Part shown: positions 2,508 through 19,621 of the stretch, piece after piece
Numbering within the stretch: position 1 is the first letter of the stretch
Layout of the letters: every line of letters begins with the position of its first letter
Virus record (IMG/VR): IMGVR_UViG_3300025000_000057
Length of the DNA: 64,000 bases
Strand: one strand, 5' to 3'
Source of the DNA: a virus
Lineage: Duplodnaviria; Caudoviricetes
Made by a program: the position numbers and the translations under genes
Notes under the pieces: model-generated
Told to the model about the DNA's origin: nothing
The model's database searches: none
What the model saw: the letters and a program-made list of their open reading frames with translations, nothing else

Positions 2508-2757
2508 AAATAATACATGCTCTAATCAGGACACCGTGCTAGACTCGAACGAGTATGAAGTACGTGTAATGGGTTTGGATAGGTGTTGTAAGAGTTGGAA
2601 GTTAAATCCCAAGAAGATATTAAAAGATAGTAAAGGTAGAATAGTACCTCAATATACTAATGCTATAATAGCAAATTGCGGTACTTGTCTTTATTACCCT
2701 ATCCTTACTACCGTGATGAACTTGAAGTATATAAGTGAAATGGGTATTGACATGTAG
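2500..2757 (+). CDS. Hypothetical protein (85 aa, Cys-containing)
   Basis: ORF overlapping the nrdD stop; no family recognised. Confidence 0.6.
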   Translation: MCENNTCSNQDTVLDSNEYEVRVMGLDRCCKSWKLNPKKILKDSKGRIVPQYTNAIIANCGTCLYYPILTTVMNLKYISEMGIDM

Positions 2758-2775
2758 CATGTAACATGGTATCAT
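2747..2775 (+). promoter_or_regulatory. Sigma-A-type promoter with extended -10
   Basis: TTGACA (2747-2752), 17-bp spacer ending TGG, TATCAT (2770-2775), upstream of GAGGTG SD and the 2795 ORF. Confidence 0.75.
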
Positions 2776-2794
2776 CTCTTCATGAGGTGGTACC

Positions 2795-3136
2795 ATGAAA
2801 GCTATGACACGTCATAATCGTACAGACATGATGGTTGAGATTGAAATTCTCAAGTTCGGAATGTACGAATCGTTAGTAAAGTATCCCGGAATGTTAGACC
2901 CTGAAGGTAGGGGTTATCGAGAGATTAATACATTCCACATATATGTACTTGATCATCAAGCAATGTTATTACACAATAAAGCATTAAAGAAACTTCAGGC
3001 TGCTGGCGAGGAACTAAGAACTGTTAGTAAGGGACTCAAAGGTATATACTCTCACCTATTGGAAGAATGTCGTGACTTACCTCAACCGATAGAGTCAGAC
3101 CTTGAACCTCCAGAAGATCCTCCGCCGCCAGAGTAA
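2795..3136 (+). CDS. Hypothetical protein (113 aa)
   Basis: ATG preceded by GAGGTG SD. Confidence 0.8.
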   Translation: MKAMTRHNRTDMMVEIEILKFGMYESLVKYPGMLDPEGRGYREINTFHIYVLDHQAMLLHNKALKKLQAAGEELRTVSKGLKGIYSHLLEECRDLPQPIESDLEPPEDPPPPE

Positions 3137-3149
3137 AGTTGGTGATACG

Positions 3150-3455
3150 ATGAGTTTTGCCAATCTTCTTAAAGAAGATATAATCGAATTTAAGACCCGA
3201 GTAAGGAATTCTTTTAGCAATAACCAATGCTCAGGTTATAGCGGGTTGTGCATAGTAGATGAAAACGGTAAAGAGCTTAAAAATAGCGTAGATTACATTA
3301 TAGATGGCGGTATTTTAACAGTAAAAGAGCATATCAATCCTATCGGTCTTATGATGCATGCTAGACTCGCACCTATGCCTCTTGAGAAACCTAGCTATGA
3401 AAAGTTTACATCTAACAATCCTGTAAAATGGTATAATAAACGACGCAGGAAGTGA
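3150..3455 (+). CDS. Hypothetical protein (101 aa)
   Basis: Start moved to the ATG at 3150 behind a GGTGA SD; the track start at 3102 overlaps the previous gene. Confidence 0.75.
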   Translation: MSFANLLKEDIIEFKTRVRNSFSNNQCSGYSGLCIVDENGKELKNSVDYIIDGGILTVKEHINPIGLMMHARLAPMPLEKPSYEKFTSNNPVKWYNKRRRK

Positions 3456-3460
3456 TTAGT

Positions 3461-3706
3461 ATGAATGATACAAATAAAGTTCAGGACTTAAAGAGCATCC
3501 CTGACGTTGAAATCGAGAAAAGATTTAGCTATCATCCTCCTACGGAAGAGCAGCCTCAGAAGTATGAGGAGATTCGCGGTATGGGTAAGGCTTTCGCAGA
3601 ACTTATCAATGAATTATGTCCTGACAGCATGGATAAACGCGAAGCTATAAAGAAGATTGAAGAGGCTGTATTCTGGGCCAATGCTTCAATAGCTCGTTAT
3701 AGTTAA
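3461..3706 (+). CDS. Acb2/Tad1-hairpin-like small protein, putative anti-defence nucleotide sponge
   Basis: RFSYHPP..Q..KYEEIR..GKAFAELINELCPDS.DKREAIKKIEEAVFWANASIAR resembles, from recall, small phage proteins annotated as Acb2/Tad1 domain. ATG at 3461 after AGGAAGTGA. Confidence 0.55.
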   Translation: MNDTNKVQDLKSIPDVEIEKRFSYHPPTEEQPQKYEEIRGMGKAFAELINELCPDSMDKREAIKKIEEAVFWANASIARYS

Positions 3707-3720
3707 GGAATGTCGAAGAT

Positions 3721-3886
3721 GTTAATAGGTAGTGGGCTATACCGAAGGCTAAGGTATACACTGGGATATATTATACATGGCGTATAAGGTGTGGTATATC
3801 TCAATTCCAGAAGTCAACACTGTGTAATTCTACTGCAGGGGATTACTAAATCATGAGAGACTGCAATCTCTCATCTACCTATTAGC
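3721..3886 (+). ncRNA. Candidate structured ncRNA, multibranch fold closed by a 12-bp helix; family unknown
   Basis: 3721-3732 pairs with 3875-3886; four internal hairpins; no ORF. Confidence 0.5.
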
Positions 3887-3895
3887 TTTTAATAA

Positions 3896-3977
3896 TGGAT
3901 GTTGGCAGATGTCCAGTGCTCACAAACAATGTCCAGTGTGCCGGAGGGTGCAATCCAAGACTGGCACACTGGATGAC
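3896..3977 (+). ncRNA. Duplicated two-hairpin RNA motif, copy 1
   Basis: 82 nt, homologous to 4678-4759 with compensatory stem changes; ends 2 nt before tRNA-Asn. Confidence 0.6.
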
Positions 3978-3979
3978 AC

Positions 3980-4054
3980 AGGGATATAGTTCAATGGTAG
4001 AACGGCGGACTGTTAATCCGTATGTTGCTGGTTCGAATCCAGCTTTCCCTGCCA
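3980..4054 (+). tRNA. trnN: tRNA-Asn (GUU)
   Basis: Cloverleaf, anticodon loop CTGTTAA, T-loop TTCGAAT, encoded CCA. Confidence 0.95.
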
Positions 4055-4056
4055 AT

Positions 4057-4170
4057 GTGGCAGCTGCAAGCGGCGCTGCTTCTTGTTCGGATAGATTCTC
4101 TAGTTTATTTATTAAAGTGGACTAGAGAATCTATCCTCAAGAAGTACACGTAGTCCACTAAATTGCAGCA
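4057..4170 (+). ncRNA. Duplicated pseudoknot RNA motif, copy 1
   Basis: Conserved 20-nt 5' block and 27-nt 3' block shared with 5696-5821, around a long variable hairpin. Confidence 0.7.
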
Positions 4171-4173
4171 CAT

Positions 4174-4251
4174 GTCGGTGTAGTCCAATTGGCAGAGACA
4201 TACGGTTTAAGCCCGTACCAGTGATGGGTTCAAGTCCCTCCACCGATACCA
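4174..4251 (+). tRNA. trnL: tRNA-Leu (UAA), short variable loop
   Basis: Cloverleaf, anticodon loop TTTAAGC, A73, CCA; no long variable arm; T-stem has a bulge or mismatch. Confidence 0.85.
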
Positions 4252-4272
4252 ATAATATAAGGTGATGATATA

Positions 4273-4425
4273 ATGTCTAAGAAATCATGTTCAACTTGTT
4301 TGTATGGAAATTGCGATATAGAATTTTATGAATTAATTCCATGCATAGAATGTAATGAATTATTATTTTGGGAATTTAAAGACTTAAGTTTCTTAGATAT
4401 TGTAATACACTTTATAAATATGTAG
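4273..4425 (+). CDS. Small Cys-rich hypothetical protein (50 aa)
   Basis: AAGGTGA SD and ATG; MSKKSCSTCLYGNC...CIEC; below the ORF-track cutoff. Confidence 0.5.
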   Translation: MSKKSCSTCLYGNCDIEFYELIPCIECNELLFWEFKDLSFLDIVIHFINM

Positions 4426-4501
4426 GGGTGTAGCTAAGTTGGTCTAAGGCATACGGTTTTGATCCGTACATTCGTAGGTTCGAATCCTACTTCCCCTTCC
4501 A
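4424..4501 (+). tRNA. trnQ: tRNA-Gln (UUG)
   Basis: Cloverleaf, anticodon loop TTTTGAT, T-loop TTCGAAT, CCA. Confidence 0.9.
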
Positions 4502-4504
4502 TAA

Positions 4505-4577
4505 CGACGCTGAGTAGAGGTAGCTTGTCAGGTTCATACCCTGAAGGTCGTGGGTTCGAATCCCTCCCCTGAAACCG
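4505..4577 (+). pseudogene. Degenerate initiator-like tRNA-Met (CAU)
   Basis: Anticodon arm TCAGG-TTCATAC-CCTGA and T-arm are intact, but the acceptor strands do not pair and the end is CCG, not CCA. Confidence 0.55.
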
Positions 4578-4584
4578 TTATCAT

Positions 4585-4670
4585 GGAAGAGTGCCCGAGT
4601 GGTTAATGGGAGCAGACTGTAAATCTGCCGTGTAACAACTTCGTAGGTTCAAATCCTACCTCTTCCACCA
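4585..4670 (+). tRNA. trnY: tRNA-Tyr (GUA)
   Basis: Cloverleaf with long variable region, loop CTGTAAA, CCA. Confidence 0.95.
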
Positions 4671-4677
4671 TAAGTAT

Positions 4678-4759
4678 TAGAGTTGGCATATCTCTAGAGC
4701 TCACATACAATATTCAGTGTGCCCAATGGAACCCACTTAAGACTGGCACACTGAATGAC
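4678..4759 (+). ncRNA. Duplicated two-hairpin RNA motif, copy 2
   Basis: 82 nt, homologous to 3896-3977; 12-bp stem 4712-4723/4745-4756; ends 1 nt before tRNA-Ser. Confidence 0.6.
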
Positions 4760-4760
4760 T

Positions 4761-4845
4761 GGAAGGTTGACAGAGCGGTAATGTGCTTGATTGCTAATCA
4801 AAGGCCAGGGTAACACCTGCATAGGTTCAAATCCTATACCTTCCG
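4761..4845 (+). tRNA. trnS: tRNA-Ser (GCU), CCA not encoded
   Basis: Acceptor GGAAGGT/ACCTTCC, G73, loop TTGCTAA, long variable arm. Confidence 0.9.
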
Positions 4846-5308
4846 CTCTAAACTAATTGGTGGTGATTATTATTTCTAATAAATATAAAAAGATTAGAAT
4901 AAACAAAAATACCACCAATAACGAACATAGATTAGTTATGGAAGCAAAACTTGGTAGAGAGTTACTTAGTTCTGAAATTGTTCATCACAAAGATGAATGT
5001 AAAGGAAATAATGAACCTAGTAATTTAGAATTGACCACAAGAAAAGAACATAGTAGATTACATATGCTTGGTAAGAAATTACCCGAATCAACTAGAGAAA
5101 AGATGAGAAATAGACCTAGTATAAAGGGTTCTAATCATGTTAATGCAAAACTTAATGAAAAACAGGTTGTATATATTAGATGTTTACTTAGTAATGGCTA
5201 TGGTATTAGAGAATTAGGAAGATTATTTGAAATACATCACAGTGTAATATCTGATATAAAGAATCGTTTAATATGGAAACATGTATTATAAGGGCCTATA
5301 CCTTCCGC
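4833..5308 (+). repeat. 14-bp direct repeat (CCTATACCTTCCGC) flanking the HNH gene
   Basis: Copies at 4833-4846 (3' end of tRNA-Ser) and 5295-5308, the second followed by CA to give CCA. Confidence 0.85.
4857..5291 (+). CDS. HNH homing endonuclease with C-terminal HTH-like region
   Basis: EHRLVMEAKLGREL...IVHHKD..K.NN...NLEL...EHSRLH HNH motif; start codon uncertain (TTG 4857 or ATT near 4872). Confidence 0.9.
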   Translation: MVVIIISNKYKKIRINKNTTNNEHRLVMEAKLGRELLSSEIVHHKDECKGNNEPSNLELTTRKEHSRLHMLGKKLPESTREKMRNRPSIKGSNHVNAKLNEKQVVYIRCLLSNGYGIRELGRLFEIHHSVISDIKNRLIWKHVL

Positions 5309-5450
5309 CATTTATGGAATCATGGAGAGTCGCAATTTATAAGTCGATTCTCCCTCTGTCTCCGCCAGTATTAAATTGTAGACGGTTGATATTTTAATGG
5401 CTTTAGCATACCGGAACAATTAACTAAGCGAATAAAAGCCATTGCATTAC

Positions 5451-5535
5451 GGAGGGTAGGCCAACGGTGGTAAGCTGTCTTGAAAACAGTCGAGGTGTAA
5501 AAGCCTAGCGGGTTCGACTCCTGTACCCTCCGCCA
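5451..5535 (+). tRNA. trnS: tRNA-Ser (UGA)
   Basis: Acceptor GGAGGGT/ACCCTCC, G73, loop CTTGAAA, long variable arm, CCA. Confidence 0.9.
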
Positions 5536-5599
5536 GGGATAACTGCTGATCCCAACCACTTTATCATGTGCTCAAGGAGTTGCGACCCTTGGGCCTCCT

Positions 5600-5676
5600 C
5601 GGGATGTAGCTTAGTTTGGTAAGGCGCCTACTTTAGGAGCAGGTAACTGGGAGTTCAAATCTCTCCACCCAGACCA
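5600..5676 (+). tRNA. tRNA with UAG (Leu) anticodon on a tRNA-Pro-like body
   Basis: Loop TTTAGGA; closely similar to tRNA-Pro at 6921; two acceptor-stem mismatches; CCA. Confidence 0.75.
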
Positions 5677-5695
5677 GAGGGCTTCACGCCCTGTA

Positions 5696-5821
5696 GTGGC
5701 AGCTGCAAACGGCGCGACTTTAACCAGTGATATAACTCCATAAGCTGATGTAATATATCTGCTAATATGGGTAAAGGATCTATCACGGATTAAGGTACAC
5801 GTAGTCCACTAAATTGCAGCA
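5696..5821 (+). ncRNA. Duplicated pseudoknot RNA motif, copy 2
   Basis: 19/20 and 27/27 identity to the end blocks of 4057-4170; different internal hairpin. Confidence 0.7.
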
Positions 5822-5825
5822 TTAT

Positions 5826-5901
5826 CGCAGGTTGGAGCAATTGGAAGCTCGTCAGTTTCATAAACTGGAGGTTGCCGGTTCGAGTCCGGCACTCGCAACC
5901 A
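5826..5901 (+). tRNA. trnfM: tRNA-Met (CAU), initiator-like
   Basis: C1:A72 mismatch, loop TTCATAA, CCA; lacks the three consecutive G-C anticodon-stem pairs. Confidence 0.8.
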
Positions 5902-5913
5902 AACATTAAAGGA

Positions 5914-6216
5914 GTGATATTTATAGATACAAATAAATTTATATTTCATGTATGTACGTTTCCAGATGAACCAGATTTAATTGTAGTTACGATCAATACT
6001 AAAGAATGTTGGAATAATTATCATTATCTTACTGATAGTTATACCAAAGAAGAGTGGGATATACTTAATCCCATATTAGATGAACTTTCTTTAGTAAGTT
6101 TAGCGGATTCTTCTTTTGAATCTATGATTGATAGAGACATACCCACTCTTGTAAAATTACTTATTTCTAAAGGTTTAGAGCAAGATTCTGAGTTTAGTAA
6201 CTGGATGGAGATCTAA
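5914..6216 (+). CDS. Hypothetical protein (about 97-100 aa)
   Basis: AAAGGAGTGA SD at about 5908-5917; likely start ATA 5923. The track start at 5872 lies inside a tRNA. Confidence 0.6.
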   Translation: MIFIDTNKFIFHVCTFPDEPDLIVVTINTKECWNNYHYLTDSYTKEEWDILNPILDELSLVSLADSSFESMIDRDIPTLVKLLISKGLEQDSEFSNWMEI

Positions 6217-6247
6217 AGATGAGTAATAGGTTGTAACCGATCATCTT

Positions 6248-6328
6248 CCGGGTGTAGCCCAATTGGTAGAGACATACGGTTTAAGCCCGTACCAGTGATT
6301 TAGGGTTCGAATCTCTCCATCCCGACCA
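6248..6328 (+). tRNA. trnL: Second tRNA-Leu (UAA), short variable loop, partly degenerate
   Basis: Anticodon arm identical to 4174 copy; weak T-stem; 3' acceptor strand CATCCCG-A-CCA identical to tRNA-Pro. Confidence 0.65.
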
Positions 6329-6702
6329 AAAATTAATTTAGGTGATGATTTAATGAACTTTAAGGAGTGAATAATATATTCGCAAAAAGTCATTATAATT
6401 GTTCTAATAATAGTAGTGAATTAGATGGTGTATATGTATTTGTTATGTCTGGCATTGAAAAAGATATGCTCGAAGAGGCTATAGGAAATGTAAATTTCGT
6501 TCCTAAAGATGTTTAGATAGGATTTGTAATTTAAAATCTATCGGTAAAGCATTTAGAAGAATCAATAACCCGATAGAATGTAATATTTCATATACGAAAG
6601 CACTTTTACAATTATTATTACAGTTGGAAGGAATTAAAGATGACAATTAAAAGAAAATTAGTATTTGTTATAACAATGGAATTTGATATGAAACTTATTT
6701 AA

Positions 6703-6777
6703 GGGCCTTTAGCTCAATGGTAGAGCATCCGGCTCATAACCGGTTGGTTGGGAGTTCGAATCTCTTAGGGCCCACCA
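6703..6777 (+). tRNA. tRNA-Ile2-like (CAU; lysidine type)
   Basis: Cloverleaf, loop CTCATAA, GGGCCTT acceptor resembling bacterial Ile2 tRNAs, CCA; elongator Met not excluded. Confidence 0.8.
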
Positions 6778-6920
6778 GAGCCTTATTAATAAGGCAGGAT
6801 TGACTACACCTTGAAGTAGTTGGGTTTCGGGCTGTACCCGGCATCGATAAGTATGTCAAAACAGTACTAACTTAGTGCTTCGACACTTTGACCGGGTCTT
6901 CCTATCTCCCCGGTCATTGT

Positions 6921-6997
6921 CGGGATGTGGCCTAGCTTGGTAAGGCGCCTGTTTTGGGAACAGGAAATCGGGGGTTCAAATCCCTCCATCCCGACCA
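6921..6997 (+). tRNA. trnP: tRNA-Pro (UGG)
   Basis: C1-G72, A73, loop TTTGGGA, CCA. Confidence 0.95.
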
Positions 6998-7063
6998 TAA
7001 TAATCTTTTATCCAAGACTGTAGTATTTTACTATAGTCTTTATTTTATAAAGGAGGTGATACT

Positions 7064-7486
7064 ATGAAATGGGTACCAGGCCCTGTTATGCAAGACTGGC
7101 TATTTGCTCTAACATTAAAAGAGCAGACAGTTCTTTTACTAAGTCTAAGGGGGTCGGATATAGGAGCTACAGTAGAGGTTAAATCATTAACCAGGTGGAT
7201 ACGTTCTATCGTTTTAAGAAATGCGGCACCGGATAAGACATTCATGAAACGTACTTATTTTGGTAGGATAATAGATATGGCAGAGGCTAATCCTCCTGCA
7301 TTTGATATGTTATCTGTACACGTATTCGGTCATCTGATGCATGCATTTGAAATAATAGGGTACAAGCACCCGGATACCGTCGTCCGGGCAAAGGCATTAC
7401 AAGCATATTTAGATCTTTGCGAGTACATGCATGTTAATCCGGAAACCGAAGTAGAGATGTCCGCTAGACTAAGTGACGAGGTGTAA
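7064..7486 (+). CDS. Hypothetical phage protein (140 aa)
   Basis: AAAGGAGGTGA SD and ATG. Confidence 0.85.
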   Translation: MKWVPGPVMQDWLFALTLKEQTVLLLSLRGSDIGATVEVKSLTRWIRSIVLRNAAPDKTFMKRTYFGRIIDMAEANPPAFDMLSVHVFGHLMHAFEIIGYKHPDTVVRAKALQAYLDLCEYMHVNPETEVEMSARLSDEV

Positions 7487-16506: not shown

Positions 16507-16935
16507 CTATTCCCCTTTCAACGGCGACGGTACAGTAATACCCACTCTCCTTAGTCTCCTTAATAAGGACTCTAAGTTAAGGGGCATATCGTAACGTATT
16601 CTGATTAGCTTAATACCACGTTCATTACAAACTTTATTCTTGATCTTGTCACATCGTTTCTGATGTTCAAATGCGTCGATTGAAGAATGAAAGTACGTTG
16701 AATATTGAACATGTTGCCGACCATCAACTTCGATAGCCAACTTTAACTCAGGATAGTACCTATCTAATTGCATAGGACTACCATGGGGGCTTTTAAGCCA
16801 TGAATAAAACCCGTTATCTATGGCTATTAAATTTGGCAATATCTTATTAAACAGCATCATTACTTTCCACTCGCGTTTAGAGTTGTAAGGGCCCTTGCTG
16901 TTTCTGGGTTTTACTTTCGGTTTACCTTTATTCAT
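16507..16935 (-). CDS. Vsr/DUF559-like PD-(D/E)XK endonuclease
   Basis: QLDRYYPELKLAIEVDGRQH...D..K...C...GIKLIRIRY pattern. Confidence 0.8.
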   Translation of the reverse strand: MNKGKPKVKPRNSKGPYNSKREWKVMMLFNKILPNLIAIDNGFYSWLKSPHGSPMQLDRYYPELKLAIEVDGRQHVQYSTYFHSSIDAFEHQKRCDKIKNKVCNERGIKLIRIRYDMPLNLESLLRRLRRVGITVPSPLKGE

Positions 16936-17704
16936 GGTCGGAGTGTCCTTTAATATATGTTTTGGCAGCTAAACGTTTCCGATTTATAGTAGCTCTACAC
17001 AGGCCCAGTGTATTTGCTATCTTCTGATCTGACATCTCGTAGATGTAGTATAACTGCAAGATTCGTCTATCCAGGGGATTAAACTTTAAATAAGCTTCTT
17101 CACATGTAAATCCGCAAATCCAGTTTTCATCTATTTCACTTGTGAGTTCAGTTTGTTTACATCGACCCTGCTTGTATATTAAGTTATCGATGAAGTCCTG
17201 GTTATCAAGTTCTTCATCTGTATAATTAAAGTTCGTTAGTTCGTTAGCGAAAGCTGAAGGATCTGTAATTAACTTTTGCAGGTGCCTATGTACGTAATAG
17301 TGAAATGATTTCTGCACATAGGTATGAAAGCAGTAAACCCCATCGTCCCGTAACTTATACCTATTGGCCATTTCGAGTAAGATACAAACAAGTTCATTGT
17401 ACACTTCTTCTTTTTCATTATTCTTGAATATGTTTTGTATCCAGGATGCACGTTTAAGGATCTCTTCAACAACATCCTTGTACTTGTAATAGCCGTGTAA
17501 TCGTTTCAGTACGTAAGGTTTTTTGATATATAAACCTACATATGAACGAAGAGATGTGTCAGATATATCGAGCCGGCCATATTTGATGAGGTTTATAAAC
17601 TTCATGATAAAACCTTCAAAATGTCTAACGATTTCATTAGCCGCATCATTATCTCCGTCTCGATATCGCCTGACCAGATCATCTAACTCTTTGTATTCAA
17701 GCAA
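16928..17704 (-). CDS. Phage-encoded sigma-70 family RNA polymerase sigma factor
   Basis: Region 2-like LVRRYRDGDNDAANEIVRHFEGFI and region 4 DRRILQLYYIYEMSDQKIANTLGLCRATINR. Confidence 0.85.
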   Translation of the reverse strand: MLEYKELDDLVRRYRDGDNDAANEIVRHFEGFIMKFINLIKYGRLDISDTSLRSYVGLYIKKPYVLKRLHGYYKYKDVVEEILKRASWIQNIFKNNEKEEVYNELVCILLEMANRYKLRDDGVYCFHTYVQKSFHYYVHRHLQKLITDPSAFANELTNFNYTDEELDNQDFIDNLIYKQGRCKQTELTSEIDENWICGFTCEEAYLKFNPLDRRILQLYYIYEMSDQKIANTLGLCRATINRKRLAAKTYIKGHSDHE

Positions 17705-18856: not shown

Positions 18857-19621
18857 CTAAAACCACTGTTTTCTTAGACAGTGTAATCGGTACGAGCAGG
18901 TATGACACTGACCACCCAGGTTAGGTACAATTAATTCATGTTTGATAGCTTTTTCGAAGTTATCCAGTATCTTAACCAGTCGTTTGTAATCTTCTGTACC
19001 TCTGGTACTTTTATATATAGCACCAGTATCTAAATACAGGTATTGGACATAGCTCTCCTTTGTCTTAAGAAGGTACCTTAAGGCAAAGGAAGCCGCTGTC
19101 AATTCTACATCGTGCTTTAATTGCGTTTGTTCGGCTCTACGCTTAGACATTCTGACATCAATAAGTTCGACTTCTTCATCGACAATTCTAACCAGTTCTA
19201 TCAATCCTGATACGGTGTGGCGACCCAATGGAACGGTGTAGGTTTGTCCTACCAGTATGGGAACACCTGGCTTCTCTTTATATTGCTCCCTTAATCTAAG
19301 GCCTATATCCAGCCCTTGCCGTTCCTTAAAACGAGGATTATATGTTATCTTATTACCATTCGAGTATAAGTGTGAAAGGATCTGTTGCATACTTCTGCCG
19401 GGACACCATATTCTACCCCAAGCTTGCTTTACATGATAGCCAGATGGGTAATAGTTATTCTGTACCTGATTAAATAAGTAGTAGAATAACTGATGTATAG
19501 CCTGATTAAATACCTCATGTACCATGAATCTCTTTTGGGGTATTAGATTGTCTTTGTATTTGAGCTTCCACATTAGAGGACATTGCATATAAGTATTAAG
19601 CTCTTTAATATCTACAACCAA
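18857..19621 (-). CDS. PD-(D/E)XK (RecB/Cas4-like) nuclease-fold protein with 4-Cys cluster motif
   Basis: YMQCPL..KLKY N-terminus, CHTCSYRLHC C-terminus; catalytic motifs degenerate. Confidence 0.8.
   Translation of the reverse strand: MVVDIKELNTYMQCPLMWKLKYKDNLIPQKRFMVHEVFNQAIHQLFYYLFNQVQNNYYPSGYHVKQAWGRIWCPGRSMQQILSHLYSNGNKITYNPRFKERQGLDIGLRLREQYKEKPGVPILVGQTYTVPLGRHTVSGLIELVRIVDEEVELIDVRMSKRRAEQTQLKHDVELTAASFALRYLLKTKESYVQYLYLDTGAIYKSTRGTEDYKRLVKILDNFEKAIKHELIVPNLGGQCHTCSYRLHCLRKQWF

Follow-up and report, generated by a model that had tools for sequence, protein, structure and literature searches.

In phage T4, genes e, soc, 49 and I-TevI each have an inhibitory hairpin whose 5' arm contains a promoter, and for e and I-TevI the hairpin forms only in the longer transcripts (PMC3014915). 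The T4-type phages RB49 and phi1 carry PeSL (promoter-early stem-loop) cassettes, which have strong promoters, terminator-like stems, an AT-rich tract and a Shine-Dalgarno sequence before ORFs, at about 50 per genome (PMC2839356). The tRNA region of T4 also encodes RNAC and RNAD, two small non-tRNA RNAs (PMC3014915, PMC9697503), and theta ribozymes are HDV-like double pseudoknots cutting at tRNA 3' ends (PMC10879173). Bacterial RNase P contacts leader positions N-1 to N-8 and is slowed when the leader is masked; in synthetic RNase P riboswitches a hairpin directly before the tRNA masks these same positions (PMC7897497, PMC8925977). In the literature searched we found no natural leader-masking counterpart of such switches. 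Phage tRNA arrays contain many unannotated folded units, which are usually taken for small RNAs or ribozymes.

Here we analysed a stretch of 64,000 nucleotides (the window; IMG/VR record IMGVR_UViG_3300025000_000057) belonging to a 137-kb virus record; its first 9.7 kb are 99.8% identical to another, longer contig of 219,483 bp. Among the proteins of the window, a virion protein has matches in 0305phi8-36 and Moorella phage MTATph1, and the source is a 0305phi8-36-like Bacillota jumbo phage. It encodes two sigma-70-family factors, one of them SigH-like (window 16928-17704 and contig L303 9163-9732, both on the minus strand), and a Cas4-like gene was seen at 18857-19621. Eleven tRNA genes lie at 3980-6997, and a single terminator-like site closes the array at 7014.

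The initial annotation had reported a duplicated 82-nt motif abutting tRNA-Asn and tRNA-Ser(GCU), and this observation is confirmed. Both copies are found where it had placed them, at 3896-3977 (A1) and 4678-4759 (A2), and contain the shared words it had named. The final TGAC of A1 stops 2 nt short of tRNA-Asn(GUU) at 3980, and that of A2 stops 1 nt short of tRNA-Ser(GCU) at 4761. BLAST aligned the copies with 76.5% identity over 81 nt (E 1.6e-11), and with the variable loop left out they differ at 10 of 67 alignment positions. A pattern made from the 25-nt core matched twice in the window against no match in 100 shuffles, while a search of the 137-kb record by BLAST and a covariance model revealed no third copy. 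An Rfam search over the element with a threshold up to E 10 returned no family. The two copies are genuine duplicates of a folded RNA element matching no known family. Coordinates of the element and its predicted parts are collected in Table 1.

Table 1. Element copies, their predicted parts and adjoining features in the window
Feature	Position	Strand	Basis
Element copy A1, through the base preceding tRNA-Asn	3896..3979	+	folding, BLAST, alignment, covariance model
Element copy A2, through the base preceding tRNA-Ser(GCU)	4678..4760	+	folding, BLAST, alignment, covariance model
P1 hairpin of A1, paired by 4 Watson-Crick and additional G.U pairs; -35-like hexamer in loop region	3896..3915	+	predicted fold
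P1 hairpin of A2, 5 pairs; compensatory changes relative to A1	4678..4696	+	predicted fold
Possible helix P2, 5' strand of A1 with bulged C; partner 3974-3979	3916..3922	+	predicted fold, favoured in A1 only
P3 long stem of A1, 11-13 bp; closes variable loop and invariant AAGACT	3930..3975	+	pair probabilities 0.99-1.0
P3 long stem of A2, 11-13 bp	4711..4757	+	pair probabilities 0.94-1.0
Sigma-A-like promoter of A1, TTGGCA-N17-AACAAT, 9/12; start inferred at 3936-3938	3902..3930	+	consensus match; start from standard spacing
Sigma-A-like promoter of A2, TTGGCA-N17-TACAAT, 10/12; start inferred at 4717-4719	4683..4711	+	consensus match; start from standard spacing
tRNA-Asn(GUU), first in array; discriminator G73, CCA encoded	3980..4054	+	tRNA calls
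tRNA-Ser(GCU); discriminator G73, CCA not encoded in place	4761..4846	+	tRNA calls
Terminator-like site closing the array, only sense-strand one in 2700-7300	7014..7040	+	terminator scan

The array holds several further unusual features. A second duplicated motif, B, was seen at 4057-4170 and 5696-5821, each copy ending 3-4 nt before a tRNA; its invariant ends form two helices that cross each other (GTGG/CCAC and GCTGCAA/TTGCAGC) and enclose an exchangeable long hairpin, and it gave no Rfam match, no promoter boxes and no exact IMG/VR match of its 3' core. Directly before A1, a structured stretch at 3721-3886 has two ACTGCA-loop hairpins, the CTGCA of which is also a stem strand of motif B. 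Orphan hairpin-rich spacers precede tRNA-Ser(UGA), tRNA-Leu(UAG) and tRNA-Pro (5368-5450, 5536-5598 and 6778-6920, respectively), and a copy of 6774-6856 with two mismatches occurs in a low-depth contig of the source samples. In three related phages (L083-L086) the tRNA arrays likewise hold many conserved structured spacers of 100-400 nt.

An HNH endonuclease gene (window 4857-5291) follows tRNA-Ser(GCU), and the last 14 nt of that tRNA (4833-4846) are repeated after the gene at 5295-5310, where only the second copy has CCA; the arrangement looks as after insertion into the 3' end of tRNA-Ser(GCU). At 5322-5367 there is an anticodon-less tRNA remnant with a tRNA-Ser-like 5' end, a T-loop-like hairpin and a GCCA end, and at 4505-4580 a degenerate initiator-like tRNA with a CAT anticodon loop and a poor acceptor stem, which has a partial Rfam match of 36 bits and no ARAGORN call. 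Three tRNAs with Leu anticodons (4174-4251, 5600-5676 and 6248-6328) are without the long variable arm. tRNA-Leu(UAG) is 82% identical to tRNA-Pro. It shares C1-G72 and A73 with tRNA-Pro, as does the tRNA at 6248, which makes the charging of these two uncertain. Directly before the array, 3452-3706 encodes an 84-aa protein with an Acb2/Tad1 hairpin domain (PF24729), likely an anti-defence signal sponge.

Closeness to a tRNA is not special in this array, where a predicted stem ends 3-6 nt ahead of the 5' end of most tRNAs. The initial annotation had suggested a processing signal, a proposal that is weakened by the nine of eleven tRNAs that lack the motif, most of which also have a predicted stem near the 5' end, and by a tRNA-Ser(GCU) about 92% identical to the present one that, on a contig of higher abundance from the same samples, follows unrelated sequence. 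As most array tRNAs lack the motif and the closely similar tRNA-Ser(GCU) does without it, the motif is not a required processing signal.

Compared with shuffled sequences the sense strand folds with z-scores of -3.4 (A1) and -2.4 (A2), against -0.8 and -1.4 for the opposite strand. The compensatory changes pointed out earlier in both stems are present at alignment columns 2:19 and 38:78, and reading off the alignment adds two further exchanges, T.G to G-C in the first hairpin and, at the foot of the long stem, G.U to A-U. In helix P2 the segment (T/A)G[C]TCA would pair with the final TGAC(A/T) and reach the base preceding the tRNA; it has a double change of its own (columns 22:84). P2 is tentative, having been noticed post hoc and being favoured by the predicted fold in A1 only. 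Six of the 10 differing columns form three compensatory pairs and no pair is broken. In only 0.06% of random-change trials did every P1 and P3 pair survive together with two double changes (p about 6e-4), and in 0.001% when P2 was included and three double changes were required; these statistics come from two sequences and a structure drawn from those same two. An alignment shuffle control is powerless with two rows (67/500). The unpaired core changed at 2 of 21 columns and the variable loop at 10 of 15 (Fisher p 8e-4), hence helices and unpaired letters both appear constrained. The absence of broken pairs, the three double changes and the conserved core together support the earlier proposal of selection on RNA structure.

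The same observations bear on the notion of a neutral duplicated spacer in which template switching at DNA inverted repeats would have preserved perfect stems. Copy B1 of motif B, with its 16-bp perfect repeat, would suit such a process. The stems of the present element, however, are short and interrupted and contain G.U pairs, the sense strand folds better than the antisense, and the unpaired letters are kept better than the variable loop, which makes this the least probable of the explanations considered.

The main rival to the reading preferred below, also raised in the initial annotation, is a stand-alone small RNA of about 85 nt, to which we give well under an even chance. It would be stacked in the array as a tRNA is and be freed passively, with RNase P making its 3' end and 3' processing of the preceding unit its other end, in the manner of T4 RNAC and RNAD. 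The invariant unpaired letters would bind a protein or an RNA, and any likeness to a promoter would be chance or secondary. This would explain all of the covariation and the difference between core and variable loop; the spacers of 0-9 nt to the neighbouring units are as elsewhere in the array, which has at least five other orphan structured stretches. On the other hand it leaves a -35/-10 match at exact spacing unexplained, no binding partner was identified, and no homologue was found, in contrast to widespread phage small RNAs. The small-RNA and promoter readings can both hold.

The match in question, which the initial annotation had not mentioned, consists of two invariant hexamers, TTGGCA, which lies in the P1 loop, and (A/T)ACAAT, which precedes P3. 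In both copies they form a sense-strand sigma-A -35/-10 pair with hexamers near consensus and a spacer of 17 nt, where 16-18 nt is expected. A pair of this kind turned up in 0.13% of column shuffles of the two-row alignment, or in 0.03% when spacer 17 alone is counted; these figures were obtained post hoc, after other ideas, and therefore overstate the match, a fair value being nearer a few percent. In the phage DNA, sites of at least 10/12 with spacer 17 occur at 0.94 per kb in non-coding against 0.17 in coding sequence, a 5.5-fold difference from small counts; at the 9/12 level of A1, about 15 sites arise per 4.6 kb in shuffles and there is no enrichment in non-coding DNA. A1 occupies a place at which one would expect a promoter, ahead of the array's first tRNA, and we found no other sense-strand promoter-like site between 3535 and 3902. 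Nor did five other orphan RNA stretches of the array, checked for sites of at least 9/12, contain any.

Sporulation and alternative sigma factors were also considered. For sigma E, F, G, K, H, L, B and D, the boxes and spacing do not occur in both copies: A2 carries a complete sigma-E -10 (CATACAAT), yet its -35 at allowed spacing is poor, and it scores 10/12 for sigma-G where A1 at the same place does not. A sigma-54 promoter was set aside as well, and the alternative consensuses fit worse across both copies.

Comparable units exist in relatives. The related phages L084 and L086 have a perfect TTGACA-N17-TATAAT directly before tRNA-Tyr, and its -35 box lies in the loop of a hairpin, as it does in P1. 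This unit is a fused terminator-promoter, in which a G+C-rich hairpin is followed by a T run and TATAAT, and its stems have changed. In the relatives, 12-15 nt separate the strong tRNA promoters from the tRNA, and the hairpin there is a terminator that includes a T run; P1 has no such run.

Our preferred reading, for which we put the chance slightly below even, is that each copy is a duplicated internal promoter and folded leader cassette before a tRNA gene. As DNA, the element would offer its two boxes to the host sigma-A RNA polymerase. The end of the -10 box is 49 nt from the tRNA in both copies, and transcription would start within the 5' arm of P3, about 42-44 nt ahead of the tRNA. An RNA started here would have a short 5' hairpin and present 8-12 predicted unpaired leader bases to host RNase P. 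In RNA from upstream the whole element would fold (P1, full P3 and perhaps P2), leaving 3-5 such bases, and the RNase P cut at tRNA +1 would create the 3' end of the element. Promoter-like sites are found further upstream at 2747, 3157 and 3507, and as no sense-strand terminator was found between them and the array, read-through RNA is allowed.

A promoter alone cannot explain the changes at 2:19, 38:78 and 22:84, since each involves bases upstream of the predicted start, and for the same reason the full fold could be selected only in read-through RNA. The fold might regulate processing, protect RNA ends or be a small RNA itself. Against the promoter with folded leader it also counts that the invariant AAGACT and GCTCACA are not promoter boxes, that A1 scores only 9/12 with a -10 box lacking T at -12, that the strong promoters of the relatives lie closer to their tRNAs and have a terminator hairpin, and that there are only two copies, from one phage.

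An extension of the preferred reading is a natural switch, in which promoter choice sets tRNA maturation: the read-through fold would slow RNase P, and internally started transcripts would be processed at once. This is T4 gene e logic moved to tRNA processing. We regard it as rather unlikely, the main objection being that most leaders in the array are predicted to be as paired as these. If true, it would be a natural control of RNase P processing, so far known only from synthetic riboswitches.

The P1 loop further allows for a clamp similar to a T-box antiterminator, in which UGGC would pair with the neighbouring tRNA at its G73-CCA end, and P3 may touch the tRNA elbow through a UGNAA loop. 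The A1 loop TTGGCAG exactly complements 7 nt at the 3' end of tRNA-Asn (4049-4055), and the lowest-energy fold of the precursor pairs the two. With regard to UGGN and the discriminator, both downstream tRNAs have G73, which is found in 3 of 11 tRNAs of the array (chance about 0.05, from two copies only). tRNA-Ser, however, allows only four pairs and has no CCA encoded in place, neither a T-box motif nor a T-box match in Rfam was found, and a -35 box explains TTGGCA equally well. We consider the clamp very unlikely.

The initial annotation had also raised the possibility of self-cleavage. A ribozyme of a new class cutting near its own 3' end could free the tRNA or punctuate the array, and conserved unpaired letters with a swappable peripheral loop are what small ribozymes have. 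Theta ribozymes show that ribozymes are used in phage tRNA arrays (PMC10879173). The element nevertheless matches no Rfam ribozyme at E 10, shares only isolated words such as GCTCA with known cores, and lies on the 5' side of the tRNA, the wrong side for a theta ribozyme. The known small ribozymes generally need paired bases past the cut and leave a 5'-OH, which is unusable as a tRNA 5' end, and self-cleavage is unsupported here. We hold it to be quite unlikely, and a promoter with folded leader is more likely than a self-cutting RNA.

Individual identities were also checked. Hammerhead, twister, twister-sister, pistol, hatchet, hairpin and glmS gave no Rfam match at E 10, and their cores are absent save for single words. 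The nested double pseudoknot, L3 motif, catalytic C and tRNA 3' cut site of a theta/HDV-like ribozyme were not found, and neither were the specifier stem, the T-box motif in an antiterminator bulge and the terminator of a T-box riboswitch. As for a tRNA remnant or mimic, the copies gave no tRNA call and no array tRNA aligns clearly to both; a D-loop or tRNA-Ser remnant was set aside after these alignments. The register differs from that of the bulged-C helix of Ro60 Y-RNA, and the 21-nt loop is too large for a DNA cruciform.

The element is so far known from two copies in one jumbo phage. The covariance-model search of phage genomes suggested at the outset was run against about 40 related phage records and genomes without yielding a homologue, and with filters off on the tRNA regions of related phages the best E was 0.5. 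Three samples of about 150 Bacillota genomes each (about 450) likewise gave none; the model was built from two sequences and is weak. BLAST of phage and plasmid records found no homologue, and no variant of the element was seen in contigs of the source samples. Exact patterns searched in IMG/VR gave, among the matches listed, only chance hits lacking the long stem, the tRNA link and the model score, and one strict pattern in JGI metagenomes also gave chance hits only. Searches with neighbouring proteins led to the same phage or to non-syntenic loci. As the searches used exact patterns or a two-sequence model, diverged relatives may be missed.

The present weight of the finding is modest, given two copies in a single uncultured phage. 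Conserved "loop" letters of a folded unit may be promoter boxes, a possibility to check before proposing a new RNA class.

Compared with the systems described above, the element brings a promoter and a stem-loop, each known in itself, together within a tRNA array in a combination we have not found described. Theta ribozymes share with it a small structured RNA abutting a phage tRNA, yet this element lies at tRNA 5' ends and is without their fold or catalytic motifs. T4 RNAC and RNAD, likened here by description, are detected RNAs, whereas the present element is duplicated and has promoter-like boxes. The synthetic RNase P riboswitches are engineered and ligand-driven, and the likeness consists in a hairpin directly ahead of a tRNA. 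The nearest known arrangements, by analogy, are T4 gene e and the PeSL cassettes. As in PeSL, a cassette of about 100 bp is repeated and combines a sigma-70-type promoter, here a putative one, with stem-loops that may overlap the -35 or the -10 box. The present element differs in its two copies before tRNAs, weaker boxes, lack of a T run and fold of two or three helices; there is no sense-strand terminator at the element, and a tRNA follows in place of a Shine-Dalgarno sequence and ORF. In the gene e type, a stem formed in long transcripts covers a downstream signal, and RNA started at the internal promoter is without the 5' arm. The covered signal in T4 is a ribosome-binding site and the promoter is of the late gp55 class, while here the proposed counterparts are a tRNA leader and a sigma-A-type promoter, both as predicted.
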